Source of the DNA: Candidatus Magasanikbacteria bacterium CG10_big_fil_rev_8_21_14_0_10_36_32
GTDB taxonomy: Bacteria > Patescibacteriota > Patescibacteriia > Magasanikbacterales > GWA2-37-8
Direction: 5' to 3'
Length of the DNA stretch: 64,000 nucleotides
NCBI GenBank assembly: GCA_002778465.1
Contig: PFBV01000005.1
Location: forward strand, 7,534 to 71,533
Part shown: piece after piece, positions 10,901 to 61,232 of the stretch
Layout of the letters: each line of letters opens with the position of its first letter
Position numbering within the stretch: the stretch's first letter is position 1
Program-made: the position numbers and the translations under genes
Notes under the pieces: model-generated
What the model was told of the DNA's origin: nothing
Databases searched by the model: none
Seen by the model: the letters and a program-made list of their open reading frames with translations, nothing else

Positions 10901-12590
10901 TTATTTAGTTCAGACAGATGAATTGTGTGATCCGACATATGGCAGGAAAATTGGTTCAATTGCACAAACCGGTTGGTGTGTCGGCGGTCAATATTTTACC
11001 GATTTAATTCCTGTAGCGTGTAGCTTAGATAGTCAATGTCCTTACACTGGAAAATGCAATAAAACACCTGATGATAAATATGGATTATTGAAAAATAATT
11101 CGTGTAATTGGGATTGTAAAAGTTATGGACCATATTGTGGGGATGGACAAGTTCAAGAGGAGTGGGGGGAAAATTGTGAAACAAATGAAAGTTGTTCCAC
11201 TGTGGGAGTATCTGGTTCAAAAAAATGTAATACAGGTTGCCGTTATGATAATGCGGGAGTAGAAGGGATAATAAGTTATTGGGGCTTTGATTATTATCGC
11301 GCTTCTGATGGTCTTATACCAGATGATAATTATATGTTTATCGGTACTTGCAAGACGGGAGTGGATTGTCCTTCTCTGACTTCTGGAATTTATAATGTGA
11401 ACAGAGCATTTAAATTCAATGGCGCGCAATATGTTCAAATCAAAAATTATTCTTCTTCGTTGGCAACTAAAACAATATATCCGCAATTTACCGTGGAAGC
11501 ATGGGTAAAACCTGATTCTGATAATACCTATCATGCCAGAGTTTTTGAAGAAGGTGGGCAATATAACAATGGCGGTTATGGTTTGGAATTTAGAACCTAT
11601 GATGATATTAATATTAATAATTTTAGATGTACAACTTGGGATGTTGGAAATATACTTTCTAAAGTTGATTCTAATCCGGTCAATACAAATGAATGGCATC
11701 ATGTTGTTTGTACTTTTAACGGGGCAACATACGGCATAGATAAAATAAAAGGTATTTTATCTATTTATGTTGATGGTGTTTTGCAGGAAGCCACTTCTAC
11801 TGCGGTTATGGCAAAAACCACTTATCCGTTGTGTTTTGGCAGTAAATGTGTCAAAACATCTTTGGGTGGTTATACTCGTTCTGCAATCAATGCATTTAAA
11901 GGTTTAATAGATAATGTGGCTTATTATTCTCGCGCATTACCATTGGAAGAAATTCAGGAACATTATGCCGCAGTAAACGGTTGGTATTGTACAGCCGGTG
12001 GCAAAACACCGGAATATTCAACTTGTGGTAATAAAGTTGTGGAAGAGGAAGAAGTTTGTGATATGGGAGATAAAAATGGTGCCGCATGCATTCCTCAATA
12101 TCCTTATACCAGCTGTACCTATTGTTCAGCTGATTGTAAAAGTGTAATTACGGTTGATACTATGTGTGGTAATGGAGTTTGGGATTATGCTGGAGGAGAA
12201 GAGTGTGATTTTAGTAATATTCTGACTGATTTTGTTAGAAATTATACAACATATCTTTCAGACAGATGTTTTGAGTGTCAATCTAATTGTACTTTTAAAA
12301 CTCCGCCTATTTTAAATACACACAACAGTCCATGTGATTTACACGGGTTAGGTTATTGCGGTGATAATATTAAAAATGGATGGGAATATTGCGATGGTAC
12401 TGATTGGGGTTCTTATTTTGAAACCTCTGCGTGTTATGAAGATGGTTATTGGGGTTATTTGACTTGCAATTCTTGTTTAAGTTTAGATTGTATACATGGA
12501 TATTGTGGTGACGGAATTATACAATCTCCGCCCGAAGAGTGTGATGGTGCATGGAATTGTTCCGTCAATTGCCATTTCTTTTCATTATAA
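1995..12590 (+). CDS. Giant (3531 aa) cell-surface protein. Signal peptide, TrbC/VirB2-like pilin domain, about four IPT/TIG repeats, three LamG (concanavalin A-like) domains and several clusters of CGDG...EECD cysteine-rich repeats.
   Basis: Single uninterrupted ORF. The N-terminal hydrophobic signal is MLSSDKRKFFWSLLLTVICGGLWLGVG. The pilin-like motif YAGFTWMTAGGNEDKIATAKKILFNAAIGLVIILSAF follows. IPT/TIG-like repeats are seen as ITNIDPMAGATGTTYVTISGRYFG, LQPKSGAPYTTNVTLTGINFGG, IFEITPNKGAKGQYITIIGKNFG and ICKIDPVSGP...ELIGEHL. LamG signatures are DDVRIYDKALSAGEVAAVYNN, IDNTIFYNKALNLDEVNNLY and IDNVAYYSRALPLEEIQEHY. The repeated CGNGIVEAGEDCD / CGDGVVSPNEECD / CGDGKIQAVTGEVCDDG / CGDGIIQSPPEECD motifs resemble the Myxococcus-type cysteine-rich repeat. 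Confidence 0.8.
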   Translation: MLSSDKRKFFWSLLLTVICGGLWLGVGFTLAQTTPDLGLAQVGEGIGLPATDIRLIVARIIRAALGLLGIVALGLTLYAGFTWMTAGGNEDKIATAKKILFNAAIGLVIILSAFAIVSFVISNLISATTGLPAHCSNGVIDAGEEGVDCGGECPACGGGTTPYGPSNVFYVKQKPSGFTCIRNYYPLVVFNHPVNLSTLENNLIVRRQDNQEQAVGTWQFASETIQNIVKFVPEGDCGSPPNDCLEASTLYELYFANASAIKSQTNLTLNCSLDATCATSEFTTGESVDRQPPTVIISSPADSSNLEKGTTVPVNVSYWDDNGIQNISLFDNEYYVDSVQVSNCETTGSVTINWPTASAVMTTHTLETIGFDWSAATGTDSVVVYLRPSHCFNNIQDVSLGEIGIDCGGECGLCGGSACSSDGECASGYCEIPPGVCVNKMIITNIDPMAGATGTTYVTISGRYFGENGGHVYFTKIGGGWAEAPIVSCGSGIDNWTQSQLIVSVPNNAADGAIKVETATTPLHDSFVDVTDGSDNWGGIYYFDVNNQQRPGLCNLQPKSGAPYTTNVTLTGINFGGTENRVVFGAGTGAFNALIKNWSNALINAKVPGMAPGTVGVKVIAMQGGGEEVSSNGMAFTVTEDINLDTPIIFEITPNKGAKGQYITIIGKNFGSNKGKVYFKLNGDQSGILGDFNFPDECGSNFWTDTKIIVKFPQAAIEIPGEYSVQVQRSTDNALSPIGAYFQAQTGSPGPGICKIDPVSGPVPFAEGKYMELIGEHLIGAQPYFWRAIASSSTIEGRLPASVETWSENNIFALPPAMALSGPVVVYRASDSKMSNSINFTVFNCLENNNTCTQAENKCCLQGTDAGMCIPKNEMCDGETRSTGYMWRFGTRDLPVVPRVIERCNSDTELALNIPSPSPSTIWNTGGVTDHVNVCRTALVTVVFNTAINPTTVDLNNVQIFKCVSSTINKNICTHDGGSISLNPESYVLHNDTSELSDDFYLTIKPDTVGGAWSDETWYQVILKSDIRAEAVAAGSLMATRPCGSGTSYCFIFKTDSTDCRLKEVVVTPLDYWTGVLERPIQYRKVKDNADDPGVEFWYRGNGLSEQKCVWMNMDSYSWNWGVSSENYASIYFANQNQAQVSALANTVAVGLADDAVRVRATASKGAFTVPPPPSIDISDGLVGWWNFDDDGAKVVDNSGNYHDGTPQSGVTYISPGKIGTALNLNGSAAVILDNPTVGFPSGMDSRTICAWGRPTDTAGGWRWVFAYGDGVEGRAMFIGQNGTSLDGGAYGADYDIIVNNFWQPGVWHHVCLTYDGDAQVANLYTDGAWNTSMTLEWKLKLNRAYIGAQVHVSPNEFWKGAIDDVRIYDKALSAGEVAAVYNNLSAAPTPTVTSPESKTGEGLLHIDLSQPKVLDYWPKCLSACTNAEIGAKFNTIMANYNLSAVKLYKCSDENCLSKEDITSGINPLFKLSDRRYLEMPLISGELEKNTIYQIVLSASGTSTSDGVNQLWSGASTTNDVILSKPYQQEFTWRFRTKQEKCQPSKVNILPPSYVASYIKEKAVYTAEAFTSPDDCNPNGQRLNPWLLNWNWTNSSNAVATIQTFVTKGHNNLCTAKCLKKGSDILFGSSVIEPICGNGIVEAGEDCDVPEKITGVSACGLNCLYLGNTSSTCGNGIIETNLGEECDLAVSQGCSSNCLNMGSNQYTGAEEIGASICGNNQIGFGEDCDIGVKGDRLVVTSSLYCSEKCLHLGTPLSAKWCYDNVATYGGFSLSEFTTACQKAISQCGDGVVSPNEECDAGIYASSTCSTNCLLLSNCTVGMEGCTTEGQLAGSSLMYSVPSVCGDAIQGIGEAIGCEQGFVISHTFNNPWVLATGVGDGPTIGLPPTQQTTITGQATAFSVSGEGKFIIPCGYHSDSECNAGDASGSLGVAQNTCCYSRPQIIKTYPVMSPLPVNVCPNTYIEIKFNKKIDPSTLYGNLILAQGRTAASCLSGEENVTGNIITTIVSANSDIWYKKVWKQIVWFVKNLFQSNTASAFKTDLNSVSWCAGKESITTEVVYDPSVSSDSNDVTSTVKIILKKALATSTDYAVILRPGIKDSRGVSIGVLSGDINRNWKFITGEQICELTDLSINPATHLFQKAGNSINLEVVSKTGNGQQIQPINGYRWEYVWEPKINDYVTLTVTTSTPNVITSKNRNGEIDVVAESKFTENIFTATSPTLRGSSHITIFLCENPWPSVADLPWHDTAWDFSTYYCRDSGSVGTADDLPNLSASVEDSLTAPYRRRYLMTDKDFTDAIGIMIFPNPEHLTVQDWYKMKNFKGTFTSLNIDGYSAITDGNNYYVDALNLSSSENIYTNIYLFSINSNAEQNMRRVFEQMITNLKFNNDFLNEKYCGSDFVDESVNYSMPCQNDLDCWTQVDLYNQTNPLTPSTDYLCLNQKDKIQRNYQRLKDVRTIIDVLSNYNQNQQIINSSTLGFYPLMKDNTYLSGQALSVWPAAWTGLGSALGASMPSDPINKLAKAGTCFQKNISSQFTACTKDENCAVPVTDGIVSQWLSDQNPTDQKGISDAQLEGDVSYSAGKGHGDAFDIAGDSVSKLIIPHKDNYNTESFTLSTWIYPRKKNTAVLFQKGGLSNGGASLGGWGLEYSDWSYYGDSLSSKVFNNGTVRFAIYPSDSSDYKYVAADSGVPLALNQWHHLAAVYDSTDMTNRKVRLYIDGLPASAIEPDGWIMKAENKAGVISVVNNADLSNNGLNIEVGQNFNGLIDNTIFYNKALNLDEVNNLYRGVCIIHDSLTGWSVEDRRFSFSCNPLSYAYRYIYDTVNRDFDLRLNIEEDGINPANWPIFISEFGIDSGSQVSMDSVCQADDEVASPYSLVCGDGVLGGTEVCDPPGKVNYDTSLCPVSATKKICNSSCQWGLATTITCAAATGAQCGDGKIQAVTGEVCDDGLLNGTNERCNTTCTGIVHNCGDYLVQTDELCDPTYGRKIGSIAQTGWCVGGQYFTDLIPVACSLDSQCPYTGKCNKTPDDKYGLLKNNSCNWDCKSYGPYCGDGQVQEEWGENCETNESCSTVGVSGSKKCNTGCRYDNAGVEGIISYWGFDYYRASDGLIPDDNYMFIGTCKTGVDCPSLTSGIYNVNRAFKFNGAQYVQIKNYSSSLATKTIYPQFTVEAWVKPDSDNTYHARVFEEGGQYNNGGYGLEFRTYDDININNFRCTTWDVGNILSKVDSNPVNTNEWHHVVCTFNGATYGIDKIKGILSIYVDGVLQEATSTAVMAKTTYPLCFGSKCVKTSLGGYTRSAINAFKGLIDNVAYYSRALPLEEIQEHYAAVNGWYCTAGGKTPEYSTCGNKVVEEEEVCDMGDKNGAACIPQYPYTSCTYCSADCKSVITVDTMCGNGVWDYAGGEECDFSNILTDFVRNYTTYLSDRCFECQSNCTFKTPPILNTHNSPCDLHGLGYCGDNIKNGWEYCDGTDWGSYFETSACYEDGYWGYLTCNSCLSLDCIHGYCGDGIIQSPPEECDGAWNCSVNCHFFSL
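2127..2370 (+). other. TrbC/VirB2 pilin-like two-helix domain inside the giant protein. It is paralogous to nt 7-240 of the first ORF.
   Basis: The two segments align directly: GLPATDIRLIVARIIRAALGLLGIVALGLTLYAGFTWMTAGGNEDKIATAKKILFNAAIGLVIILSAFAIVSF versus GLPATDIRLIIARIIRVALSLIGIVVLVIIIYGGYLWMTAGGNEDQIGKAKKVLFNAVIGLVIILSAYAIVSF. Confidence 0.55.
3310..4525 (+). other. Block of about four IPT/TIG-like beta-sandwich repeats within the giant protein.
   Basis: A repeating pattern is visible: I..I.P..G..G..VTI.G.NFG at each repeat start, and KVYF / RVVF strands further on. Confidence 0.5.
5545..6150 (+). other. LamG / concanavalin A-like lectin domain 1.
   Basis: GNYHDGTPQSGVTY...LNLNGSAAV...WHHVCLTYDG...DDVRIYDKALSAGEVAAVYNN is the canonical LamG_3 C-terminal strand motif. 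Confidence 0.6.
6890..7450 (+). repeat. Cluster of tandem cysteine-rich repeats (C-x-x-C-G-[DN]-G-[IV]...EECD). Similar clusters occur at about 10600-11230 and 12140-12585.
   Basis: The cluster contains ICGNGIVEAGEDCD, CGNGIIETNLGEECD, ICGNNQIGFGEDCD and CGDGVVSPNEECD; the later clusters repeat the same theme. Confidence 0.55.
9750..10350 (+). other. LamG / concanavalin A-like lectin domain 2.
   Basis: FDIAGDSVSKLIIPHKDNYNTESFTLSTWIYPRKKNTAVLFQKG...WHHLAAVYDS...IDNTIFYNKALNLDEVNNLY. Confidence 0.6.
11280..11970 (+). other. LamG / concanavalin A-like lectin domain 3.
   Basis: AFKFNGAQYVQIKNYSS...FTVEAWVKPDSD...WHHVVCTFNG...IDNVAYYSRALPLEEIQEHYAAVNG. Confidence 0.6.
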
Positions 12591-40759: not shown

Positions 40760-42142
40760 ATGCCGCCGATTATTTTTGACACACCTTTTGGTTTTAGTAT
40801 TGATCTGTCTTTTTGGCAGGATTTTTTCAGCATGTCCATTTCACAACAGTTGAAAGGTTTTTTTGTTTTTATTATTTGGTGGGCGGTAGCGTTAATATTA
40901 TTTAATTTTGCGTTACAAAAATGGGTGGCTTGCCGGCAAAAAAAATATGTCAGTGATTGGCAGTGGTCTGTTTTAGCGGTGGATGTACCAGCTTTGTATG
41001 TTCAATCACCAAAAGCAGTAGAACAAATTTTTGTTAATTTAAGCGGCGCGGCTTTTTCACCAAAATTATTTGATAAATATTGGACAGGTAAAATACCAAA
41101 ATGGTTTAGTTTTGAAATTATAAGTATTGAAGGTTATATTCAGTTTTTGGTTCGTACGGAATCGGAATTTCGTGATTTGGTTGAAGCGGCTATTTATGCC
41201 CAATATCCGGAAGCAGAAATTACTGAGGTAGAGGATTATGTTGGAAATATTCCAGATATGTTTCCAAATGAAACGCATGAAATTGCTGGTGCGGAATTCA
41301 CTTTGTTACAAAATGAAGCTTATCCGATTCGTACTTATCCGCATTTTGAATATAAAATCAGTAAAGATGTTGTTTTTAGTGATCCAATGGCGGCAATTTT
41401 GGAAAATTTTTCACGCATCGGTTCAGGAGAAAATTTTTGGATGCAATTGGTGGTTAAACCAGCGGATAACAGTTGGAAGAAAAATGGAATTGATTTAGTT
41501 AAAAAAATAATTTCCAACAAAAAAGAATCTAAAGCGCCGTCAATTGTTTCGGTGGTTGGAGGTTTGCCGGAAGTTGCATTGAAAACAGCTATTCAAATTT
41601 GGAATTGGGAATTTGAAACAGAAAAGAAGGAAGAAACTTCTGGTAAAGTTTCAGATTTAACGCCGGGAATGAAACAGGTAGTGGAAGCAATTGAAGAAAA
41701 AATTTCTAAACTTGGTTTTTATTCTCGTTTAAGAGTTTTGTATTCGGCAAAAAAAGAAGTTTTTAATCCACGCAAATGTTTGGCTGGTTTAGTAGGTTCT
41801 TTAAATCAGTTCTATATCGCTGATCGTAATGGTTTGGCGGCGCAAAAAGCCGGAGGTTCCGATTTGGTCTTATCTTTTAAACAAAGAAAATTAAAATTTT
41901 TTAAGAGCTCCAAGGTAAAAGCTGTGAATGAACCCTATGTTTTAAATATTGAAGAGTTGGCTACTTTGTGGCATTTTCCGTTACCTGACGTAAAAACACC
42001 TCTAGTACAAAAATCATCAGCTAAACGCGGTGAACCGCCGACAAATTTACCTGTGGATAGTCCTGATAGTTTACCAACCAAAGATGAAGGTATTACGGAT
42101 GATTTACCAGTTGTTCCACCAGAAGAATTGCCATATGCCTAA
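40760..42142 (+). CDS. Paralog of the N-terminal (non-ATPase) region of the VirB4/TrbE-like ATPase encoded at 54997-57552. One N-terminal transmembrane helix. No P-loop.
   Basis: IYAQYPEAEITEVEDY...LVVKPADNSWKKNGIDLVKKI...EELATLWHFPLPDVKTP aligns with IHAQYPHAEITEETDY...YVVRPASTEWRKDGVRIIREI...EEMASFWHLPTSLTETP of the 851-aa protein. Confidence 0.55.
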   Translation: MPPIIFDTPFGFSIDLSFWQDFFSMSISQQLKGFFVFIIWWAVALILFNFALQKWVACRQKKYVSDWQWSVLAVDVPALYVQSPKAVEQIFVNLSGAAFSPKLFDKYWTGKIPKWFSFEIISIEGYIQFLVRTESEFRDLVEAAIYAQYPEAEITEVEDYVGNIPDMFPNETHEIAGAEFTLLQNEAYPIRTYPHFEYKISKDVVFSDPMAAILENFSRIGSGENFWMQLVVKPADNSWKKNGIDLVKKIISNKKESKAPSIVSVVGGLPEVALKTAIQIWNWEFETEKKEETSGKVSDLTPGMKQVVEAIEEKISKLGFYSRLRVLYSAKKEVFNPRKCLAGLVGSLNQFYIADRNGLAAQKAGGSDLVLSFKQRKLKFFKSSKVKAVNEPYVLNIEELATLWHFPLPDVKTPLVQKSSAKRGEPPTNLPVDSPDSLPTKDEGITDDLPVVPPEELPYA

Positions 42143-43781: not shown

Positions 43782-43905
43782 AAGACTAATTAGATGCCGT
43801 TAATTCAAGACTTTTTAGTGTTGGGTTAATTATATATGAAAGATAATATATGGACAAGTTGTTCGGCGATTATTTTTTTTATTAACTAAGTCAGATTGAC
43901 ATTGT

Positions 43906-43914
43906 TGATATAAT
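43906..43914 (+). promoter_or_regulatory. Extended -10 element TGaTATAAT upstream of the metallopeptidase gene.
   Basis: gttgaTATAATgtg read directly. No good -35 at 17-nt spacing. Confidence 0.3.
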
Positions 43915-43994
43915 GTGCTAATTTAATTTTATACTTTGTTCTTTAACAATTAACCAATCTCAACAAGATCGGAACAACGCAAGAGAGGTGGAGA

Positions 43995-45971
43995 ATGTGC
44001 GAAAAAATGAAGCGATTTTGGTTGTCAATCAGTGTGATTATTGTGATTTTGATGTTTGTGAGTTGTGGTACTGTGACAGCTTTTGTTCCGCCGGATATCA
44101 GTTTGTCGGTTCTTGATTCTGACATGTTTGACAATGGTGTCATAAATCCACCGTCATCAAAAGTTCCCAGCAGCGTAGCGGTTCCCTTTGAGGCTTTGGA
44201 AACCGAACAGTTACTCAAAAATTTGGTTATTCCCGCCTGTAATTATCGTGATATCACTCTTCGTTTGGCTGATCCGGGAGTTGAAATTCCAGAAGTGGTA
44301 AACACAAACCCGCCAAATTATAAAATTGATGATGAACGACAGTTTTGGGTGTCTAATGTTGACACTGGAAAGTATTACAGTATTATCGCCAAGTTGGTGT
44401 ATAAGACTGAGCATGCTTATATTTGGTTGGAAAAAGGAGCCAAAACTCAATTGGTAAGTCTGAAAAAGGCGGCTGATTTATGGGATAAAAAGTATTATCC
44501 CACAGATCGTGAGTTTTTCGGCAGTGAATGGTCGCCCGGCGTGGATAATGATGCCCGTATTAATTGGCTTATCTCAGATAAAATGGGTGAACATGCGGCT
44601 GGTTATTACAGTAGCATGGATGAATATAGTAAATTAGTTAACAAATATTCCAATGAAATGGAAATGTTCTATCTCAGTTCTGAAAATAATCCGGCCGCTG
44701 TTCCGTATTTTAATGGAGTATTGGCGCATGAGTTTGCTCACATGATTCAATGGTATCACCATTCCAATCAAGCAAATTGGATTGATGAGGGTTTGGCCGA
44801 GTTAGCTGTTCAAATTAATGGTTTAGATCCTGGTTTGAAGCGAATTCGGTTTGCATATAATCCGGACATTCAGCTAAATTCTTGGCCTGAATTGGATAGT
44901 GCTACCGCTTATTATGGTGCCGCCTATATGTTTATGTCTTATTATTTGGATCGTTTTGGAAAAATTGCTACTCAAGCGTTGATTAGTAGCACATCATACA
45001 GTACAGCAGCAATAGACGAAGCTTTGAAAGATAAAAACATTACTTTCAATCAGGTGTTTGCTGATTGGACAATCGCTAATTATATTAATAATTCGAATAT
45101 TGGTAATGGTGAGTACGCTTATCGTACCATTCAACCAACTCGTTTTAAAGCTTGTCAGAAGATTCAGCCAAGTGATTATCCGATAGATATTACTGATAGT
45201 GTTGCTCAATACGGAACTGATTATATTGAAATTTCAGGACATACTGATTTGGAAGTAAAATTTACTGGTGATTCAACTGTTGGTTTGACTGCAGTTACCG
45301 CTCACAGTGGAAAATATATGTGGTGGGGTGGTTCAAATAATGCCAGCGACGCAACCTTGACACGGACATTTGATTTGTCCGGCGCTGAAAAGGCAACATT
45401 GACTTTTTGGACATCGCATGATATTGAAGAAGGATACGATTATGTTTTTGTAGAAGCTTCCGTTGATGGTAAACATTGGACAACTTTACAGGGTACTAAC
45501 ACTGTAATTGATAATCCTAACGGAGCTAATTACGGTTTTGGTTATACTGGTACAAATAATGGTTGGGTTCAAGAAAAAATTAATCTAAGCCAATATGCCG
45601 GAAATAAAGTTCAAATTCGTTTTGAATATATTACTGATGCAGGATTAACCAAGTCTGGTTTTTTCTTGGATGATATTGCAATTCCTGAAATTGGTTATAT
45701 GTCTAATGTAGAGAAGAATAATGGTGGTTGGACAGCGAGAGGATTTGTCCGTAACGCCAATATTTTGCCACAATACTGGTCAATTCAACTTATTACTGTT
45801 GGTTTGACTACTACGGTTGAGAAATTGCCAGTAACCCAAAATGCTACAGGAAATTGGACTGTTCATTTTAAAAAGGATGATACGCGTTATACTGTGTTGG
45901 TAATCAGCGGTTTGACACCGATCACATTGGAACGACCAAGTTATAAGTTGGTTGTTAATATTAAAAAGTAA
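43995..45971 (+). CDS. Secreted zinc metallopeptidase (HExxH...E gluzincin) with a C-terminal beta-sandwich domain resembling a pre-peptidase C-terminal domain.
   Basis: GVLAHEFAHMIQWYH followed by NWIDEGLAELA. N-terminal signal or lipoprotein-like MKRFWLSISVIIVILMFVSCG. The C-terminal part reads YDYVFVEASVDGKHWTTLQG...GWVQEKINLSQYAGNKVQIRFEY. Confidence 0.6.
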   Translation: MCEKMKRFWLSISVIIVILMFVSCGTVTAFVPPDISLSVLDSDMFDNGVINPPSSKVPSSVAVPFEALETEQLLKNLVIPACNYRDITLRLADPGVEIPEVVNTNPPNYKIDDERQFWVSNVDTGKYYSIIAKLVYKTEHAYIWLEKGAKTQLVSLKKAADLWDKKYYPTDREFFGSEWSPGVDNDARINWLISDKMGEHAAGYYSSMDEYSKLVNKYSNEMEMFYLSSENNPAAVPYFNGVLAHEFAHMIQWYHHSNQANWIDEGLAELAVQINGLDPGLKRIRFAYNPDIQLNSWPELDSATAYYGAAYMFMSYYLDRFGKIATQALISSTSYSTAAIDEALKDKNITFNQVFADWTIANYINNSNIGNGEYAYRTIQPTRFKACQKIQPSDYPIDITDSVAQYGTDYIEISGHTDLEVKFTGDSTVGLTAVTAHSGKYMWWGGSNNASDATLTRTFDLSGAEKATLTFWTSHDIEEGYDYVFVEASVDGKHWTTLQGTNTVIDNPNGANYGFGYTGTNNGWVQEKINLSQYAGNKVQIRFEYITDAGLTKSGFFLDDIAIPEIGYMSNVEKNNGGWTARGFVRNANILPQYWSIQLITVGLTTTVEKLPVTQNATGNWTVHFKKDDTRYTVLVISGLTPITLERPSYKLVVNIKK

Positions 45972-46016: not shown

Positions 46017-46112
46017 TACATTGACAAATACTTAAAAAGGTGATATAGTACTATGTTCTTTACAATAAAACTCTAGTTGGGTAAAAACCAACTACGCCAA
46101 AGGAGGCGTAAA

Positions 46113-47015
46113 ATGGACGAATTTTTGGAAATGAGAACACACCAGAGAAAAGATTGGTTAATTAAGTTAGCAGTTGTAATTATATTATCTGGTTGTCTCG
46201 TAGTGTTTTGTTGTTGGGTTTTTCCTCAGATGAGCTTGTCACCAAGCGTAACTAAGGCATTTATACCTGAAACACTGCCGCCGGCACAGTCTGATCCGAT
46301 GGATAGGTTGGAAAATGATTTGCTCTCTGCTTCGTTCGTTGTGTATGGTTTTTCAAAAGATGGAGAACACAAAAACATTCAATGTTCGGCTACAGTTTTT
46401 GAAAAAGAAGGCAATATTTATCGTTTAATAACTTCTGCTCATTGTTTGGTTGAAGATGAACAATACGATGGTATTGTTAGAGTGTTGCCTTATAATATTT
46501 TCATCGCCCATAACAGTTTGGACAGTCTAATTTTTTCTGCTCGACTGGTTGCTATTGGTTTTCAAGGTCGCTATGATGATTTTGCTGTATTGCAAGCGGA
46601 AATTGTAGACGATACGATTCCTGCTATTCCATTAGCCAAAAGTGACCCGGTGATAGGCGAAGAAGTGGTGAATGTTTCTTTTCCGTCTCTTGTTGGTCGG
46701 CAGTTGGTTAGAGGAATAACAATGATTGAACAAGTAGAAATAAGTTCGGGTGAGATGAAGGGGGATAAAGTTACTGTTTTTGATTTAACTTCTGGTTCTG
46801 GTTCGTCCGGTTCGGCCATTGTTAGTCGAGAACAAAAAGCCATTGTTGGTGTTTTGACTGGTGGTTATTCACAAGAAGGCCAGTTGTTAAATGAAACAAC
46901 TGTAGGTTTGCCGGTTAGCAAGTTTCGTATTTTTTGGGAAGCGGTTAAGGCCGATGAATACCCGTGGTACCAGTCATCCGAAGAGTCGGTTGGTAGTGGA
47001 GACTTTTTATATTAA
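46113..47015 (+). CDS. Secreted trypsin-like serine protease, paralog 1 of 6 (S1/Trypsin_2-like).
   Basis: AGGAGG ribosome-binding site 8 nt upstream. N-terminal transmembrane or signal segment. Catalytic motifs TSAHC (His), DDFAVL (Asp) and GSGSSGSAIV (Ser). Confidence 0.65.
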   Translation: MDEFLEMRTHQRKDWLIKLAVVIILSGCLVVFCCWVFPQMSLSPSVTKAFIPETLPPAQSDPMDRLENDLLSASFVVYGFSKDGEHKNIQCSATVFEKEGNIYRLITSAHCLVEDEQYDGIVRVLPYNIFIAHNSLDSLIFSARLVAIGFQGRYDDFAVLQAEIVDDTIPAIPLAKSDPVIGEEVVNVSFPSLVGRQLVRGITMIEQVEISSGEMKGDKVTVFDLTSGSGSSGSAIVSREQKAIVGVLTGGYSQEGQLLNETTVGLPVSKFRIFWEAVKADEYPWYQSSEESVGSGDFLY

Positions 47016-47066: not shown

Positions 47067-47241
47067 ATTTATTATGGTCTATAATTTATTGTTATTTTAG
47101 CCAAAAAAATGATGCATCAAAAATAAATAAAAACACTTGACAGTTTTTTTGTTGTTTGTTACATTACATTTGGTTCTTTTAAAAATTAACTTTTGGTAAA
47201 AACATTTTTAAACAAGTGACTTAACCCACGAGGAGGGTGAA

Positions 47242-48162
47242 ATGGAAAAGAAGATGTTTGGTTTCGTTATGTTTATTATGGCATTCGTTTGCGCAATGAT
47301 GCTCAGCGGGTGTGGAGCAGTCAGTTTCTATAGCGGTTCCAATACCGTGATCAATGCCAGTGGCAATAGCCATTCCGTCAGTGTCCTAGAGAAGGATATG
47401 GAATCGGCCGTGGCTCTGCTTTACGCCAAGAAGGATGACGGGCAGCTGCGCATGTTCTGTACAGCAACCGCTTTTGAGCGTTCGGGTAAGACTTACCGTT
47501 TTGTTACCGCCGCACATTGTGTCGCCGAAGATATCAACGGCATGGTGGAACTGGTACCGTACCAGTGGTTTATCAGTTTCGACGAACCGGGCGTCAAGAC
47601 ATTTTATCCTGCCAAACTGCTCGGCGTTGGTTATCAGAGTCGCGGTGATGATTTCGCCGTACTGGAAACCACCCTGGATCGCCAGATTCCGGTTATTCCG
47701 ATGTCAGCTACCGATGCCGAACTCGGTGAACAGGTAAGTAATGTCGCTTCGCCGCTCGGTTTGGGCAAGCAGCTCTTCCGCGGACATGTGACCACTGTTT
47801 ATATGGACAGGCCTGTTGTAGGTGCCGGTCTTAATTGGACAGGTGCAACATTGCTTCAAATCAGTTGCGGACCCGGATCTTCCGGTTCGTCTGTAGTAAG
47901 TCAGAACAGACACACTATTGTTTCTATTCTGGTCGGTATGATTTACCGAGGTCCGGCGGTGTTCATTGTTTCCATTCCGGTAACAAAGTTCAACCGTTTT
48001 TGGAGAGATATTCAAACCAATAAGTACCCTTGGTACGCGCCTGCCTTCAATGCCAACGGAATTCCCGTTTCTACAAGCAGCAGCCAGCGAGATCTTTCGA
48101 ACTTTATGAATCGGATTGATCGTGGTCTGTCGGTTGTTTTGGAACCGGAACCCACTAAGTAA
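47242..48162 (+). CDS. Secreted trypsin-like serine protease, paralog 2, with a lipoprotein-like signal.
   Basis: GGAGGG ribosome-binding site. Signal MFGFVMFIMAFVCAMMLSGCG. Catalytic motifs TAAHC, DDFAVL and CGPGSSGSSVV. Confidence 0.65.
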   Translation: MEKKMFGFVMFIMAFVCAMMLSGCGAVSFYSGSNTVINASGNSHSVSVLEKDMESAVALLYAKKDDGQLRMFCTATAFERSGKTYRFVTAAHCVAEDINGMVELVPYQWFISFDEPGVKTFYPAKLLGVGYQSRGDDFAVLETTLDRQIPVIPMSATDAELGEQVSNVASPLGLGKQLFRGHVTTVYMDRPVVGAGLNWTGATLLQISCGPGSSGSSVVSQNRHTIVSILVGMIYRGPAVFIVSIPVTKFNRFWRDIQTNKYPWYAPAFNANGIPVSTSSSQRDLSNFMNRIDRGLSVVLEPEPTK

Positions 48163-48217: not shown

Positions 48218-48327
48218 ATGTTATTATGTTTGACATTTTTTTGTAAAAATGCTTTAATAGCTCAAGTTCCTTACAACAAAACAATATTGTCCTCTGCCAA
48301 ATGGAAAATGGGGACGAAGGAGGAGTG

Positions 48328-49092
48328 ATGAGACAAAATTGTATATGGTTGGTTATTTTGGTAGCGATTATGTTTTCAATGTTGACGACCAGTGTTTCGT
48401 CCGATGAAATATCGGATCAACAGCTGGAAAGAGATCTTCAGAAAGCTACTGCCACGGTGTATATTAATACTGATGAAGGAGATATGGAACCAATATGTTC
48501 AGCTGTGGCGTTCAAGCGCGGAGCTGATAATACTTATTATTTTATCACTTCATCTGATTGTCTCGGTGATGACCTGGTTGTGAGTTTATTTGGAGATGTT
48601 ATTACTGAGATGGATTTTTATCTTGCTTTCAATCAAGCCGGCAAGGTAAAAATGTTTCCGGCGAAGATTACTCAAGTTATTCGTAGTCAGCAATTGTATG
48701 GTGGGGGAGTTGTAATTTTTCAGTCAGTTCTTTATTGGAATATTCCGGTTATTCCACTGGCGACTGATTCAATGAAAGCCGGTGAAAAAATAATTAATTA
48801 CTCCCTGATCAGTAATCCGGATCAGCCCATATTTAATGGTTGGGTGACCAGAATGAAGGTTTCAAAACCGTTAGTGGTCAATGGAATAGAAAATTTCAAC
48901 GCCATTGTACTTTGTGTGAATCAGAATATAGACAATAAATTGGCTGTATCTGATCCGATAATTGTTAGTCGTGATCAAAGAGTCATTGTAGCTATTTTTG
49001 TTGGCACGGCTAATTATTTTGGGGTGAAAAAGCCGGCCGCTGTTCCTATCAATAAAATTATTACATCCGCACCCACAGAAGACAAACAGTAG
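48328..49092 (+). CDS. Degenerate paralog 3 of the protease family, a predicted catalytically dead pseudo-protease.
   Basis: The family N-terminal signature is retained (CSAVAFKRGADNTYYFITSSDC), but His is replaced by Asp (TSSDC), and the DDFAVL Asp motif and the GSSGS Ser motif are both absent. AGGAGG ribosome-binding site and N-terminal transmembrane segment are present. Confidence 0.55.
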   Translation: MRQNCIWLVILVAIMFSMLTTSVSSDEISDQQLERDLQKATATVYINTDEGDMEPICSAVAFKRGADNTYYFITSSDCLGDDLVVSLFGDVITEMDFYLAFNQAGKVKMFPAKITQVIRSQQLYGGGVVIFQSVLYWNIPVIPLATDSMKAGEKIINYSLISNPDQPIFNGWVTRMKVSKPLVVNGIENFNAIVLCVNQNIDNKLAVSDPIIVSRDQRVIVAIFVGTANYFGVKKPAAVPINKIITSAPTEDKQ

Positions 49093-49108: not shown

Positions 49109-49140
49109 AACCCCCGACATTGTTCGGGGGTTTTATTTTT
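49109..49140 (+). terminator. Intrinsic terminator (aacccccgacattgttcgggggtttt).
   Basis: Hairpin followed by a T-run. Confidence 0.6.
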
Positions 49141-49235
49141 TCCTCATAACTTGACTGTTTATTCAACCGTATGTTAATGTAATTATACAGGTTCTTTAAC
49201 AAACAAAATAACCAATTGCCTTAGGGAGGCTTCAA

Positions 49236-50195
49236 ATGGACAACAGAACGTTTAAACAAATTTGTCTTATTGCCGGCATTACATTGGTCGGCTCCATGCT
49301 TGTGGTGTTGTTGTGTATGGTGGCTTTTATGGCTGGTTCTATGAATAATCGCTTGGTTGTTCAACAGCCAATTTATGGCTACGCGCCTCCGCCGTCGATT
49401 TCCGAATCAGAGGAATCGCTTGCGCAGTTGGAAAATGACGCAATCAATGCTACTGCCTTGCTATATTTTGAAAACAAATCCGGCGGAATGGATTTTTATT
49501 GTACCGCCACCGCTTTTGAGAGGGTGGGTCATTACTATAAATTTCTTACCGCCGCGCATTGTGTTTCCAGTGACGATACTGTCAATAAAATGGTTCGTAT
49601 TAAGCCGGGGAAATGGTATATCAATTTTGATATGCCTAACAATAATGAATTTCATAGAGCGAACGTACTCGCTGCCGGTTATATGTCAGACGGAGATGAT
49701 GTAGCGGTATTGGGGGCTTATCTGGATGATTTTAACCCGATTATTAATTTGTCTCAGGAAGACGCTGTAATCGGTGAACGCATAATTAATATTGCTGGTC
49801 CGCGTGACCTTGGAAAGCAGCTTATTCGGGGTAATATCAGCCAAGTAACTCCTGGGAGAGGTTCGTTTTTGAGTGATAGAATAATGATTCAGATTCATAG
49901 CGGTGGTGGTTCGTCCGGTTCGGCGATTATTAGCCAGAATAAGAAAGCAATTGTTGGTGTATTGGTAGCTGGTTTCGGTGGTTTTTTTCAAATGGAACCG
50001 TTTTACGATGTAACTGTAGCTGTTCCTATTGGAAAGTTTCATCGTTTTTGGGCAGCTATCAAAGCGAATAATTATGAACATTTTAATTTTGAAAGTTATG
50101 AGCCGACAAATCAGCTTTCAAAGGATATGGACACTCCGGTTGATTCCGACACTGGAACAGATGCTGGAGTTGATTGTTCTAATTCGGACAAATAA
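49236..50195 (+). CDS. Secreted trypsin-like serine protease, paralog 4.
   Basis: GGGAGG ribosome-binding site. N-terminal transmembrane segment. Catalytic motifs TAAHC, DDVAVL and SGGGSSGSAII. Confidence 0.65.
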   Translation: MDNRTFKQICLIAGITLVGSMLVVLLCMVAFMAGSMNNRLVVQQPIYGYAPPPSISESEESLAQLENDAINATALLYFENKSGGMDFYCTATAFERVGHYYKFLTAAHCVSSDDTVNKMVRIKPGKWYINFDMPNNNEFHRANVLAAGYMSDGDDVAVLGAYLDDFNPIINLSQEDAVIGERIINIAGPRDLGKQLIRGNISQVTPGRGSFLSDRIMIQIHSGGGSSGSAIISQNKKAIVGVLVAGFGGFFQMEPFYDVTVAVPIGKFHRFWAAIKANNYEHFNFESYEPTNQLSKDMDTPVDSDTGTDAGVDCSNSDK

Positions 50196-54996: not shown

Positions 54997-57552
54997 TTAC
55001 AAACGTGGCCCGGAGTCAACACCAATTTCTCTTTTACTTGTCGCCCCAAGTTTAGAACGTTCCATAATTTCTTCTTCAACAATTTCTCTCGGGCGGCCAT
55101 ATTTTAAACGGGATAATTCTTTGATTGCCGCTGCCAGTTCGGTATTGCCTTTTTGTGGCGGATAGGGACTAAAATTAAACGGTTTAGCTGCCGTGTTGTC
55201 AATTAATAATTTTAAATAGACAGTGTATTGTTCAATATTGATTAAATCATAAGCTCCAAAAACAGGTGCAAATTCTTTAGCTAATATTTCAGCATCTTCA
55301 GTGCCAATGCGATAAACAGCAATCGTACCGGCATTTCCCAAGACAGCATCACGAACAGTGGATTTTCCTTTATTATCTTCCAGTTGTTTTAAATATTGAT
55401 GGGCAATAGTAAGATTTAATCGGTATTTTCGAGCTTCAGAAAGAATGGTGGCAATAGATTCGGTAATAAAGTTTTGAAATTCGTCTATATATAAGAAAAA
55501 GTCGTGACGTTGGTCTTCAGGAAGAGAAGCTCGTTCCATTGCTGCCATTTGCAGTTTGGAAACAATAATCATGCCCAATAAATTGGAATTAATTTCTCCA
55601 ACCAAACCTTTGGCCAAATTAACTAATAATATTTTTTTCTTATCCATTATTTCACGGAAATTAAAACCGGAATGTGTTTGTCCGACAATATTGCGAACCA
55701 TTGAATTTTCCACAAATCGTCCGACTTTGGAAATTAAATAACCAAGCATTTCCGATTTGTGAAAGTCGGAGGTTTTTGCCATTTCTTGATTCCAAAAATT
55801 TAAAACCACCGGATCTTTAATTTTCTTTTTCCATTCAGTCACAAAAGTATCATCAGTAAACATTCTTGGAATCTCAGCAATGGTACCGGGATTTTCATTG
55901 TCTGACATTAAAGTCAGCATCACATTTCTCATTTGATGTTCAAACATCGGTCCAATCATTGATGGATCGGTGACCAATTTATAAAAAATTGATATCATTT
56001 CTTGATTAATAAAATCTTTTTGATCCTCTGTTTTTGCTTCCAACATATTTAAACCAATCGGTCGTTCTACATCGGACGGATTAAAATAAATCACATCTTC
56101 TGCTCGTTCTTTTGGTACATGCTGTAAAACATACTCAACAAAATCTCCGTGCGGATCTATAACACAAACACCCTCGCCGTTTTGTACATCTTGAACGGCC
56201 AAATTTTGTAATAATACGGTTTTACCGCTGCCTGATTTACCAACCACATAGAAATGACGTCTTCGATCAGCTCTTTTCATTTTTACGATAGTTTCTTCAC
56301 CTCGATAAACAGTTCTCCCAAGAGTAATGCCTTCCCGTGGCATATTTACTGGCGGAGGGGCTTTACGAGCTCCAAGCCAGTTAATATGAGGTGTTTCAGT
56401 TAAAGATGTCGGTAAATGCCAAAAACTGGCCATTTCCTCAGTATTGGTTATCATAGATAAACCGGGTCGCATTGTTCGGTGAATTGATTCACGAATTAAT
56501 GTGTCTGGTTTTTTTGGAATAACTGCACCAAAAGAATTACCGTAACGGTAAATGTTATATTGATTAAATGAGTTTAAGATATTTTCTAAGTTTAATTGAG
56601 CTTTTTCGTTGGAGGATGAAGTACTGACAACACGAATTGTAATTTCCAATCCGCCGTGGCTGATTTTATCTTCCATTCCTTTTAACATTTCTTCTTCCAT
56701 TTGTGTCATTCGGTAAGATTCAGTGGGGGATTGTTCCTTGTTTTGTTTTTTTGGTTTAGACCATTTTTTAAATAAGTTTGATATACCGGTTCGGCGCACT
56801 ACATTTTCAAATTTTTCTCCGGCGCGTATTTCTCTAATTATTCTTACTCCGTCTTTTCGCCATTCGGTTGAAGCCGGACGAACGACGTATTGAATAATAG
56901 CCCCCTCATTTTCTACTAGTTTGCTTAAGGGATTTAATAATCCCACAAGTGGATCACTGTCCATTTGTTTATATGTTTTGAACGGAAAAACTGATTTTTG
57001 TTTGAACCACAGGTAAGCGCCGACTATGTGGCTATCCGGTTTGAAAATATTATAATCGGTTTCTTCGGTAATTTCCGCGTGTGGATACTGAGCGTGGATT
57101 TGTTGAGAAACAAAATCTTTCATTTTATCAGGTACGGCCACATAAAAAGATATTTTACTGTCTCTGACCACCACTTCAAATGAAAAAAGTTCTTTTGGTC
57201 CCAAAAACCATGACATAAATCCTTGTTCGCGCCGCAATCCGGCAAGGGAAGAAAATAAAGTGGCAGCTATGGCAATTTGCTCACGATTTTGACTAACGGT
57301 ATCAGTGCCAGCATTTAAAGTTTCACCTTTTTTTTCTTTTGGTACGCGGATAAGTATGATGGTTTTGTGAAAAGCCTTACTATCAAGATTTTTTATTTGA
57401 AGAATTTTTCTAATCAAATTAAAAACAATAATTAAAGCGGCAACAAAAAGTGGAATCAGTAATAACCAAAGCCAATCCGCGCTTGGTGTTGGAATTGTTG
57501 AGGCGCTTAAAGACATTGTGTCAAGCGGATTGATTGGAAATTGATTTTCCAT
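54997..57552 (-). CDS. VirB4/TrbE/CagE-family (T4SS-type) ATPase with an N-terminal transmembrane helix and a large N-terminal domain.
   Basis: Walker A HFYVVGKSGSGKTVLLQN. Walker B-like FFLYIDEFQNF. The RKYRLNLTIAHQ motif matches the VirB4 RK...TQ signature. N-terminal transmembrane segment WLWLLLIPLFVAALIIVFNL. Confidence 0.6.
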   Translation of the reverse strand: MENQFPINPLDTMSLSASTIPTPSADWLWLLLIPLFVAALIIVFNLIRKILQIKNLDSKAFHKTIILIRVPKEKKGETLNAGTDTVSQNREQIAIAATLFSSLAGLRREQGFMSWFLGPKELFSFEVVVRDSKISFYVAVPDKMKDFVSQQIHAQYPHAEITEETDYNIFKPDSHIVGAYLWFKQKSVFPFKTYKQMDSDPLVGLLNPLSKLVENEGAIIQYVVRPASTEWRKDGVRIIREIRAGEKFENVVRRTGISNLFKKWSKPKKQNKEQSPTESYRMTQMEEEMLKGMEDKISHGGLEITIRVVSTSSSNEKAQLNLENILNSFNQYNIYRYGNSFGAVIPKKPDTLIRESIHRTMRPGLSMITNTEEMASFWHLPTSLTETPHINWLGARKAPPPVNMPREGITLGRTVYRGEETIVKMKRADRRRHFYVVGKSGSGKTVLLQNLAVQDVQNGEGVCVIDPHGDFVEYVLQHVPKERAEDVIYFNPSDVERPIGLNMLEAKTEDQKDFINQEMISIFYKLVTDPSMIGPMFEHQMRNVMLTLMSDNENPGTIAEIPRMFTDDTFVTEWKKKIKDPVVLNFWNQEMAKTSDFHKSEMLGYLISKVGRFVENSMVRNIVGQTHSGFNFREIMDKKKILLVNLAKGLVGEINSNLLGMIIVSKLQMAAMERASLPEDQRHDFFLYIDEFQNFITESIATILSEARKYRLNLTIAHQYLKQLEDNKGKSTVRDAVLGNAGTIAVYRIGTEDAEILAKEFAPVFGAYDLINIEQYTVYLKLLIDNTAAKPFNFSPYPPQKGNTELAAAIKELSRLKYGRPREIVEEEIMERSKLGATSKREIGVDSGPRL

Positions 57553-59228: not shown

Positions 59229-59261
59229 AAGATCGCCTTGTTGCAACTTGGCGATCTTTTT
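59229..59261 (+). terminator. Intrinsic terminator (aagatcgccttgttgcaacttggcgatctttt).
   Basis: 9-bp stem plus T-run after corA. Confidence 0.5.
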
Positions 59262-59351
59262 AAATTGACTAAATACTTGTCATGTGCTAAGTTACTTTTG
59301 GTGTTCTTTAAAAATTATTCAGCCAAAAAGTCACTTTGGTCGGAGGAAACA

Positions 59352-60140
59352 ATGAGTCAGAAAAAAGAGTCTATGAGTCGTTTGGAAAAAGATTTGCTGG
59401 CGGCTACAGTTTTTTGTATCATGATTGTAAATATAACGGTTAAGGATGAAAAAACCGGCAGGAAAAAGAGGCAGGACGATGTTCGTCAATTTTCCGCCAC
59501 CGCCTTTGAAAAGGAAGGCAACATTTATCGATTTATAGCGGCGGCGCATTGTATTGGTGACAATAATCAGATGTGTGATGATATTATGAATAATTCGTTG
59601 AAAATTCCTCCCATGATTTATTTGTCCAAAAATAGTCTGGCTACTAAACAGGGTATCTATAGAGCTAAATTAGTAGCTATGGGAAAATTGTCTGAAGGTG
59701 AAGATTTTGCCGTTTTGGAAGCGGAAATAAACGATTGTGAAATAACGGTTATCCCATTAGTAGATTCTAATTTGGAAATGGGCGATGAAGTCATTAATAT
59801 TGCCACGCCAATTGGTTGGGACAAAACATTGTTTCGTGGTTATGTCGCCAATCTAAATATGGATAAATTTAAATATTCCATCGGAGAAGATTCAATTGAA
59901 ATTAAAACTGCCATACTGTGCAGTCTGCCATCTGGACCTGGTTCTTCCGGTTCAGCCATTGTCAGTGAAAAACATGGCGGCATTGTGGCAATTTTAGTAT
60001 CCAGTTTGAAATCCGGAAAAAAAACAATTGCGCCCGTTTCGGTTGTTTTACCGATTAGAATGTTTAAAGAGTTTTGGAAGATGTTTAAATTGGAAATTAA
60101 ATCTAATCAATATTTTGAAGAAAATATTGATTTTGTTTAA
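59352..60140 (+). CDS. Secreted trypsin-like serine protease, paralog 5.
   Basis: GGAGG ribosome-binding site. Start at MSQKKESM. Catalytic motifs AAAHC, EDFAVL and SGPGSSGSAIV. Confidence 0.65.
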   Translation: MSQKKESMSRLEKDLLAATVFCIMIVNITVKDEKTGRKKRQDDVRQFSATAFEKEGNIYRFIAAAHCIGDNNQMCDDIMNNSLKIPPMIYLSKNSLATKQGIYRAKLVAMGKLSEGEDFAVLEAEINDCEITVIPLVDSNLEMGDEVINIATPIGWDKTLFRGYVANLNMDKFKYSIGEDSIEIKTAILCSLPSGPGSSGSAIVSEKHGGIVAILVSSLKSGKKTIAPVSVVLPIRMFKEFWKMFKLEIKSNQYFEENIDFV

Positions 60141-60305: not shown

Positions 60306-61232
60306 ATGGTTAAGAAGAATGAATCCGGACTTGTTACTCAACCTAAAGAAAGTTTTTTGTCGCCATTGGAACAAAAGGCGATGGCGGCAACCGGTGTGAT
60401 GACATCTATGATGGAAGCTGTAGATAGTGCTACTGGAGAAAAATTTTTGATACCTCGGGGTATGTGTACAGCCACGGCCTTCAAACGCCGTGGCAATGTC
60501 TATTATTTTATTACCGCCGCGCATTGCGCTGGTATAGCCGGACCTACTCAGGGTGATATGTGTTTACCTGAAGATAGTGATCGTGGTTTTATTAGAGTAA
60601 TGCCATGGAAATGGTTTATTGATTTGAGCGAAGGCGGTTTATCACTGTCTGTTTTGCATGAAGCAGAACTTTATTCCATTGGTCACACTGGACAAGGCGA
60701 TGATTTTGCTGTTTTTAAAGTTAAGTTGCAAAAACCTATTCCAGTTATGCCACTGGCTCTCTGGGATCCGCGAGTTGGTGAGCCCGTCATCAATGTGGCC
60801 GCGCCGGCGAATTTGGGCAAGCAGCTTTTTCGTGGTCATGTCAGTAGAGAATATTTTTCGACTAGGGGTGACAAAGATGCGGGAAAGGTTTTGTTTCAGT
60901 TGCCGTGCGCCCCAGGTTCTTCCGGTTCGTCCATTATTAGTCAGTCGCAAAAAGGTATTATTGCTATTTTGAATGAATCAATTAGTATTTCTTCGACCAC
61001 AGATGATGGTAAAGAATTTGTTACTCAACTTAATTCTGCCGCTTTGCCTGTTAGTCGGTTCGTGAAGTTTTGGAAATTATCCGAAAAAGGTGAATACCCT
61101 TATCCGGCTTTTGTTCCGTTGAATTTTCAGCCATGGATGCTTGGCTTGGAGGATATACCCGAATTAAACGATGCTTGTGGCAATTGTGAAGGTTGTGAAT
61201 GTCATTCTAAAAAAAACATTCACGGAAGATGA
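60306..61232 (+). CDS. Trypsin-like serine protease, paralog 6 (no obvious N-terminal hydrophobic segment).
   Basis: AGGAGG ribosome-binding site. Catalytic motifs TAAHC, DDFAVF and CAPGSSGSSII. The C-terminus is Cys-rich (CGNCEGCECH). Confidence 0.65.
   Translation: MVKKNESGLVTQPKESFLSPLEQKAMAATGVMTSMMEAVDSATGEKFLIPRGMCTATAFKRRGNVYYFITAAHCAGIAGPTQGDMCLPEDSDRGFIRVMPWKWFIDLSEGGLSLSVLHEAELYSIGHTGQGDDFAVFKVKLQKPIPVMPLALWDPRVGEPVINVAAPANLGKQLFRGHVSREYFSTRGDKDAGKVLFQLPCAPGSSGSSIISQSQKGIIAILNESISISSTTDDGKEFVTQLNSAALPVSRFVKFWKLSEKGEYPYPAFVPLNFQPWMLGLEDIPELNDACGNCEGCECHSKKNIHGR

Follow-up and report, generated by a model that had tools for sequence, protein, structure and literature searches.

Within an array of HtrA-like serine protease genes of Candidatus Magasanikbacteria bacterium CG10_big_fil_rev_8_21_14_0_10_36_32, one gene encodes a protein, here called D, that can be classified computationally as a pseudoprotease, being a homolog of active proteases that lacks the catalytic residues and is under purifying selection. 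Since its orthologs are intact, the gene order is kept, dN/dS lies at 0.15–0.26 and the promoter and ribosome-binding site are conserved, D is regarded as a selected pseudoprotease and not as a decaying gene. It is rather probably a secreted or surface protein that serves the adjacent active paralogs as a non-catalytic partner. The gene lies in a stretch of 64,000 nucleotides of contig PFBV01000005.1, referred to as the window, where it belongs to the following cassette:

43995 to 45971, plus strand: InhA-like (M6-type) metalloprotease of 658 aa with HExxH and a MAM domain (E 1e-32), which heads the cassette here
46113 to 47015, plus strand: active paralog P1, triad His-Asp-Ser (HDS), N-terminal membrane anchor
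47242 to 48162, plus strand: active paralog P2, triad HDS, lipobox LSGC, predicted lipoprotein
48328 to 49092, plus strand: dead paralog D, 254 aa, open reading frame intact
49236 to 50195, plus strand: active paralog P4, triad HDS, long N-terminal membrane anchor

The protein is identical to PIT88080.1 (UniRef A0A2M6W5S1) and is annotated as "hypothetical protein COU29_03640". Some gene calls (P0109) begin further upstream, at an ATG at 48301, and give 263 aa; the start at 48328 is preferred because the N-termini of the orthologs read MRNKF, MNKR, MKKS or MQNKF. An earlier note on this DNA had described the third paralog as an intact frame that keeps the N-terminal block of the family, a ribosome-binding site and a terminator, and each of these was found: the frame of 254 aa at 48328–49092 (plus strand) is uninterrupted, the block reads CSAVAFKRGADNTYYFITSSDC, the sequence AAGGAGGAG stands at 48317–48325, and a hairpin at 49109–49132 is followed by a T-run. 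A Pfam search with D, the Trypsin_2 model included, returned no match even at E<=1, although the same model matches P1, P2 and P4 (E 1e-10 to 2e-12). Two NCBIfam models were rejected as noise: the c-type lysozyme inhibitor, which scores 17 bits against a cutoff of 127, mainly over the signal peptide and N-terminal helix (residues 7–57), and JUQZ, which scores 16 against a cutoff of 40 over residues 6–89, reaching into the barrel.

Searched exhaustively with a profile, 1.84 billion cluster representatives yielded 104 members of the family, and the His-Asp-Ser combination is present in 87 of about 100 aligned sequences (97 representatives and the three active paralogs of the window). Five orthologs of D, all with intact reading frames, were found on related metagenome contigs at 37–57% identity; the runs that contain them are SRR22388082, SRR22315506, SRR22387786, SRR22388036 and ERZ27247707. 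The dead clade comprises the window protein, P0002, P0003 and P0004 (52–57%), P0005 (37%), P0006 (39%) and the fragment P0008, and in a neighbour-joining tree it is monophyletic with 100% bootstrap and a long stem branch. Scans of genome and metagenome contigs with the dead-clade profile gave no relatives, and a word-indexed search of 5.8 billion proteins gave only 4–6 members, which marks the clade as either rare or poorly sampled.

The positions at which the catalytic residues would be expected in D are as follows:

48556 to 48558, plus strand: codon of Asp77 at the catalytic His position (TSSDC against TAAHC); orthologs D/A/A/E/E
48706 to 48708, plus strand: codon of Gly127 at the catalytic Asp position (GGGVVIF against GDDFAVL); orthologs G/G/G/G/Q
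48937 to 48957, plus strand: rebuilt nucleophile (L1) loop K204-L-A-V-S208-D-P210, which replaces G-S-S-G-S and is 4 residues longer

The replacement of the His of TAAHC by Asp, which the earlier note had read from the sequence, was recovered in the paralog alignments as Asp77, and the DDFAVL motif that it had reported missing is indeed represented by GGGVVIF, with Gly127 at the place of the catalytic Asp. Over the six dead-clade members the His column reads D/D/A/A/E/E and the Asp column G/G/G/G/G/Q. The nucleophile is less simple. The GSSGS motif is absent, with AVSDP in its place, and the glycines that flank the catalytic Ser are gone; in ungapped alignments, Ser208 of D sits in the nucleophile column, which reads S/A/T/T/S/Y in the clade, while the profile–profile alignment places a 4-residue insertion in the loop of D and puts Lys204 in that column, which then reads K/K/K/K/Q/D. 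The column is thus unconserved under either alignment. Within the loop, V207 and P210 are invariant in the clade, position 209 is D or N, and position 208 is S/A/T/T/S/Y. The claim that all three catalytic residues are lost can accordingly be kept for the His and the Asp, and for the GSSGS motif as such, but in the ungapped reading a serine still occupies the third position. An alternative His/Asp/Ser set in catalytic geometry, which the earlier note had named as a refutation, can be dismissed: the window protein, P0002 and P0006 contain no histidine anywhere in the protein, so that a cryptic triad in D is excluded, and the ortholog alignment contains no invariant Ser, Lys or His near the active site of the dead clade. 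D therefore has neither the G-x-S-G-x nucleophile and oxyanion loop nor the His-Asp-Ser triad, and on account of Asp77, Gly127, the rebuilt loop and the lack of histidine it is considered a homolog of the family and not an active peptidase.

The fold, in turn, is kept, although the models show it diverged from that of the active neighbours. Profile–profile comparison (hhalign) of the dead clade with the active clade gave a probability of 100% (E 2.2e-40 over 210 columns), even though D shares only 24–25% identity with the paralogs of the window. An AF2 model of D, built on a 101-sequence family alignment, reached a pLDDT of 90 and a pTM of 0.85, and consists of the two six-stranded beta-barrels that define the chymotrypsin fold of clan PA (S1). 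A Foldseek search of the PDB with this model retrieved M. tuberculosis HtrA, the protease domain of MamO, DegS and HtrA1/2 (E 5e-9 to 1e-7), whereas a sequence search of the PDB with the dead-clade profile gave nothing at E<=1. D can be described as an HtrA-like S1 double beta-barrel without triad, PDZ domain or C-terminal KYPWY extension. Pfam detected no PDZ domain in D or in the active paralogs. The C-terminal extension of the family (a KF..FW...KYPWY helix with a tail) is lost in D, which ends about 10 residues past the last barrel strand. In the models, the stretch that follows the His-loop is a beta-hairpin in P2 and a helix in D (residues 82–93). Dead and active members alike share Cys57 and Cys78 almost without exception, and the pair probably matches the His-loop disulfide of S1 proteases. 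The N-terminus carries the following segment:

48328 to 48399, plus strand: N-terminal hydrophobic segment, residues 1–24, MRQNCIWLVILVAIMFSMLTTSVS, read from the sequence; modelled as a helix over residues 2–19

This is a Sec-type signal peptide or signal anchor without a lipobox, of a type that is conserved in the orthologs, and cleavage of the signal peptide is predicted. Together with the Cys57–Cys78 pair, the segment makes an extracytoplasmic location of D likely.

Selection on the gene was measured in a pairwise manner, with six sequences only and with several pairs saturated at synonymous sites. For the three unsaturated pairs, the Nei–Gojobori (NG86) estimates of dN/dS are 0.155, 0.18 and 0.26, and pN/pS is 0.25–0.31 (Fisher p 5e-11 to 4e-26). 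Between the window and locus L004 the identity is 37% for D, 46% for P1, 55% for P4 and 62% for P2, so D is the fastest-evolving member of the array; it is nevertheless clearly constrained. The earlier note had proposed that dead orthologs conserved under purifying selection be looked for. Five such orthologs, intact and in the same array position, are now available with dN/dS of 0.15–0.26, and together they bear out its suggestion of a dead paralog with a selected non-catalytic role, whichever role this may be.

The surroundings of the dead gene are also conserved. Gene order is P1-P2-D-P4 in L004, P2-D-P4 in L005, P2-D in L001 and L002, and D-P4 in L003, and an identity matrix resolves the four genes into clean orthogroups. 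P2 lies directly upstream of the dead copy wherever the upstream side is visible, P4 lies downstream of it in the window, L003, L004 and L005, and the P1 ortholog is the first array gene in L004. The gene upstream of P1 in L004 differs from the metalloprotease of the window and lies on the opposite strand. The dead copy of L001 has no P4 after it. Ten genomes with a single-copy P2-like gene, from Patescibacteria, Parcubacteria, Uhrbacteria, Vicinamibacterales, Gammaproteobacteria and Binatia, were also inspected, and none has a dead neighbour within 6 kb of that gene; the dead copy is thus confined to the array context. As to localization, P1 and P4 appear to be held by long N-terminal hydrophobic anchors and P2 to be a lipoprotein, while D shows no lipobox; in the P2 orthologs, the lipobox reads LSGC, IGGC or LTGC.

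The array is bigger than first seen, as two more active (H-D-S) paralogs, at 59352–60140 and 60306–61232, are located 9 kb further on. The first of these was delimited mechanically as an open reading frame at 59238–60140, but its probable true start is the ATG at 59352, after GGAGG; a promoter-like site at 59265–59309 lies inside the longer frame. Unlike every other paralog, the protein starting at 59352 has no signal peptide or anchor. P2 also stands apart in composition, with a GC content of 0.49 and a GC3 of 0.515, where the neighbouring paralogs have a GC3 of 0.31–0.375 and the window as a whole has a GC content of 0.365. Its GC content matches that of the contigs of the relatives (0.47–0.49), and its identity to L001 is 78% against 57% for D, which suggests a recent transfer or allelic replacement of P2 alone. 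The active proteins of P2 type (window, L001, L004, L005 and L016) share a conserved C-terminal tail, RDLSNFMNRIDRGLSVVLEPEP, beyond KYPWY; in P2, it is modelled as a helix and a short strand (residues 282–299), and the whole extension is absent from the dead clade. Elsewhere in the window, a 460-aa reading frame at 40760–42142 without a Pfam match contains a segment similar to the N-terminal part of an 851-aa homolog of VirD4/TraG-like coupling proteins (54997–57552, minus strand), the two segments reading ..AQYPEAEITEVEDY.. and ..AQYPHAEITEETDY.., which suggests a paralogous N-terminal domain. A giant reading frame of 3531 aa occupies 1995–12590 on the plus strand.

The signals for expression of the dead gene were located as follows:

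48230 to 48258, plus strand: promoter of D, TTGACA, 17 nt, TG-extended -10 (TGcTTTAAT)
48266 to 48277, plus strand: GTTCCTTACAAC motif just 3' of the -10 box, common to the cassette promoters and two others in the window
48287 to 48325, plus strand: hairpin of the 5' untranslated region, UUGUCC...GGAC, directly before the Shine–Dalgarno sequence, in 5 of 6 loci
48317 to 48325, plus strand: Shine–Dalgarno sequence AAGGAGGAG, 2 nt before the ATG; core GGAGG at 48319–48323, 4 nt before it
49109 to 49142, plus strand: intrinsic terminator with a 9-bp stem, 6 of its pairs GC, and then a T-run

The orthologs in L001, L002 and L004 are preceded by a promoter that is nearly base-for-base the same; in L003, where the sequence is cut short before the ortholog, only the -10 part is visible. 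The conserved non-coding block comprises the P2 terminator, TTGACA, 17 nt, TGcTTTAAT, a GTTCTTAACAA-like box, a short hairpin and the Shine–Dalgarno sequence, and it is retained across loci whose coding dS exceeds 1. This conservation is good indirect evidence that D is transcribed from its own promoter. Promoter, ribosome-binding site and terminator are conserved across loci, and from these D is probably expressed. The hairpin (UUGUCC...GGACAA) is found at 48287–48317 in the window and at about 716–737 in L001, 275–309 in L002, 42–63 in L003 and 2727–2748 in L004; it shows almost no covariation, with one compensatory pair only, which is weak support for a structure. The leaders of P1 and P4 also appear able to pair with their own Shine–Dalgarno sequences (GCCT..AGGC and CGCC..GGCG).

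Each gene of the cassette has its own terminator and its own promoter of TTGACA type, so the cassette is not one operon; the metalloprotease gene has a promoter of the same type. A common pattern, TTGACW-N26-38-GTTCYTT, which joins the -35 box, the TG-extended -10 box and a GTTCTTTAACAA-like box, occurs 7 times in the window against 0.21 expected:

43896 to 43944, 46021 to 46061, 47137 to 47179, 48230 to 48272, 49151 to 49197 and 59265 to 59309, plus strand: TTGACW-N26-38-GTTCYTT sites
35541 to 35500, minus strand: TTGACW-N26-38-GTTCYTT site

A copy of the pattern stands before each of the five cassette genes and before P5, and orthologs in L003 and L004 also have it upstream. GTTCYTT was considered as a cassette-specific operator and discarded, given that the pattern is also found at two other promoters of the window (35500 on the minus strand, and 59265). 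Either a common operator or leader, or a signature of strong promoters in this lineage generally, could explain the pattern.

A plausible history would be that D arose by duplication within an array of PDZ-less, HtrA-like envelope proteases (clan PA, Trypsin_2), then lost the catalytic His and Asp and had its nucleophile and oxyanion loop rebuilt, and has since remained, under purifying selection, a fixed member of the cassette P1-P2-DEAD-P4. D would be exported and, without being catalytic itself, would act with the membrane-tethered active paralogs, and with the lipoprotein P2 in particular, as a regulatory, activating, gating or substrate-presenting subunit. For this, it may use the relic substrate-binding strands V-x-D-P-V-I-V-S and A-I-F-V-G-T-A-x-Y-x-G, which are still conserved. 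In fact, the best-conserved blocks of the dead clade include the former L1 strand (V-x-D/N-P-V-I-V-S-R-D) and L2 strand (I-V-A-I-F-V-G-T-A-x-Y-x-G), which favours a retained surface for binding peptides or proteins. P2 is the most likely partner because it is adjacent to D in every locus in which that side is visible.

The partnership is supported by the conserved order P1-P2-D-P4 and by the occurrence of the dead copy only in arrays. It is also favoured by other triad-less members of the family, whose sequences indicate that P0040, P0081 and P0088 lost the triad independently of D; in the neighbour-joining tree the other dead members fall near the dead clade, possibly by long-branch attraction. 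P0040 (S-N-P), a predicted lipoprotein at 228–998 of L016, overlaps the start of an active paralog of 362 aa (967–2055) with an intact triad, and P0081 (E-N-E), at 329–1183 of L017, lies just downstream of an incomplete family gene, of which the contig does not include the triad region. P0088 (T-G-I), at 4717–5490 of L018, speaks against the partnership, as it is dead and has no family neighbour, with no active one within about 5 kb. Other points against it are the separate promoter and terminator of each gene, the lack of P4 after the dead copy in L001, and the rapid evolution of D, which also fits a protein facing an external, changing ligand.

Such a ligand is central to a possible though unlikely alternative, in which D is a stand-alone secreted binder or decoy that works independently of the neighbouring proteases and whose ligand is external: a molecule of the host or partner-cell surface, a protease inhibitor or a peptide. 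The signal peptide of D without lipobox and the missing C-terminal extension, next to active paralogs that are membrane-tethered, agree with this proposal, and so do its own promoter and terminator and its status as the fastest-evolving member of the array with an omega that is yet below 0.3. CPR bacteria are commonly episymbionts, a lifestyle that would suit such a protein, and models for it exist in the SMIPP-S of the scabies mite, in haptoglobin and in the trypsin-like domains of UmbA. The strict place of the gene between P2 and P4 and its absence where the family is single-copy, however, speak for a tie to the paralogs, and no ligand can be named.

An inhibitory role, in which D would be a "safety catch" that caps the active sites or the oligomer interfaces of its neighbours until a signal releases it, is improbable as a specific reading; it is a sub-case of the partnership, and the probabilities of the two overlap. 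The synteny bears on it as it does on the partnership. The helix at residues 82–93, predicted to be amphipathic and conserved in the dead clade, follows the former His and replaces the beta-hairpin of P2, and it would correspond in position to loop LA of HtrA proteases, which regulates access to the active site. The proposal is nevertheless purely inferential, and the evidence does not distinguish inhibition from activation. Much less probable is that D is an unconventional hydrolase, in which, for instance, Ser208 or a Thr would work with another base: Ser208 and a Ser or Thr in 3 of 5 orthologs do occupy the ungapped nucleophile position, but one ortholog has Ala and another Tyr there, D has no His, no Lys, His or Ser is invariant in the vicinity of the site, the glycines of the oxyanion hole are gone, the loop is 4 residues longer and the catalytic Asp is Gly. 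The chance that D is a non-functional remnant drifting to loss, a view to which its rank as the most divergent array member and its lack of a Pfam match might lend themselves, is negligible and is refuted as far as computation reaches by six intact reading frames at identities down to 37%, dN/dS of 0.15–0.26 (p<1e-10), the conserved promoter, ribosome-binding site and terminator, and the confident fold prediction.

Pseudoproteases of the S1 fold are already well known in eukaryotes, where they include SMIPP-S, the insect clip-domain serine protease homologs, haptoglobin, HGF, protein Z and azurocidin, and they have been documented in bacteria. The eukaryotic proteins belong to subfamily S1A, with zymogen activation, and have no specific sequence relationship to D. 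To our knowledge, bacterial pseudoproteases with evidence of selection are few, and MamO and CspA/CspC are the textbook cases.

MamO, the nearest precedent, is a pseudoprotease of the Trypsin_2 fold that activates MamE-dependent proteolysis (Hershey et al., 2016; PMC4794232). In the same work, three further independent active/inactive duplications were found, and a selective pressure to pair both forms was argued (PMC4794232). The repeated pairing and the activation by MamO both favour the partnership proposed for D, and the repeated independent pairs show the same pattern that is seen within the family of D. Like D, MamO and the inactive MamE duplicates have a bacterial Trypsin_2/HtrA fold in which the triad is degenerate and the oxyanion position is not glycine, and MamO, like D, has an active paralog in the same gene cluster and forms a monophyletic conserved clade. 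There are also clear differences. MamO carries a surface di-histidine (or H-D) motif for metal binding (PMC4794232), whereas D lacks a di-histidine site (there is no His in D, P0002 or P0006); D has no additional membrane domain and ends right after the barrel; its host is a CPR bacterium and its context contains no magnetosome genes; the partner of MamO is one PDZ-containing HtrA, in contrast to the three PDZ-less paralogs of D; and the identity between MamO and D is only about 13–16%. The resemblance is only generic, that of a dead paralog beside active ones.

Another example is that of CspA and CspC of Clostridioides difficile, dead paralogs that are encoded beside the active CspB and regulate a proteolytic cascade (PMC7200643). 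They resemble D in being conserved despite the loss of the triad and in being encoded beside an active serine protease, but they have the subtilisin fold (clan SB) and not that of chymotrypsin, they act in spore germination, one of them is fused to the active enzyme, and they are not homologous to D. In its logic, the partnership proposed here would resemble the pairing of MamO and MamE and that of CspA/CspC and CspB. With respect to HtrA, DegS and DegP (MEROPS S1C), D is HtrA-like and belongs to clan PA by fold and homology, but two features that define HtrA peptidases, the PDZ domain and the triad, are missing; even for the active P2, the sequence relation to the HtrA family is marginal (E about 1e-3 to DegP-like chains). 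A literature search for pseudoenzymes in Patescibacteria found no report linking the two.

The annotation of PIT88080.1 can be mended from a "hypothetical protein" without Pfam domain to an S1-fold pseudoprotease. It is conceivable, though quite unlikely, that P1-P2-DEAD-P4 forms a hetero-oligomeric, PDZ-less, HtrA-like surface machine of CPR cells in which a soluble D recognises the substrate or gates the complex. If so, the relic groove of D could bind substrates or the conserved C-terminal helix–strand tail of P2, and the machine would be a dedicated module for processing surface proteins of the host or partner cell in an episymbiotic lifestyle. The proteins related to D are uncharacterised PDZ-less HtrA-like proteases of CPR bacteria, whose surface biology is almost unknown, and the conserved array of three active genes and one dead gene offers a concrete hypothesis for them, namely that a dead subunit modulates membrane-tethered proteases. 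Together with P0040 and P0081, D adds a case to the idea that selection has repeatedly favoured pairs of an active and an inactive protease.
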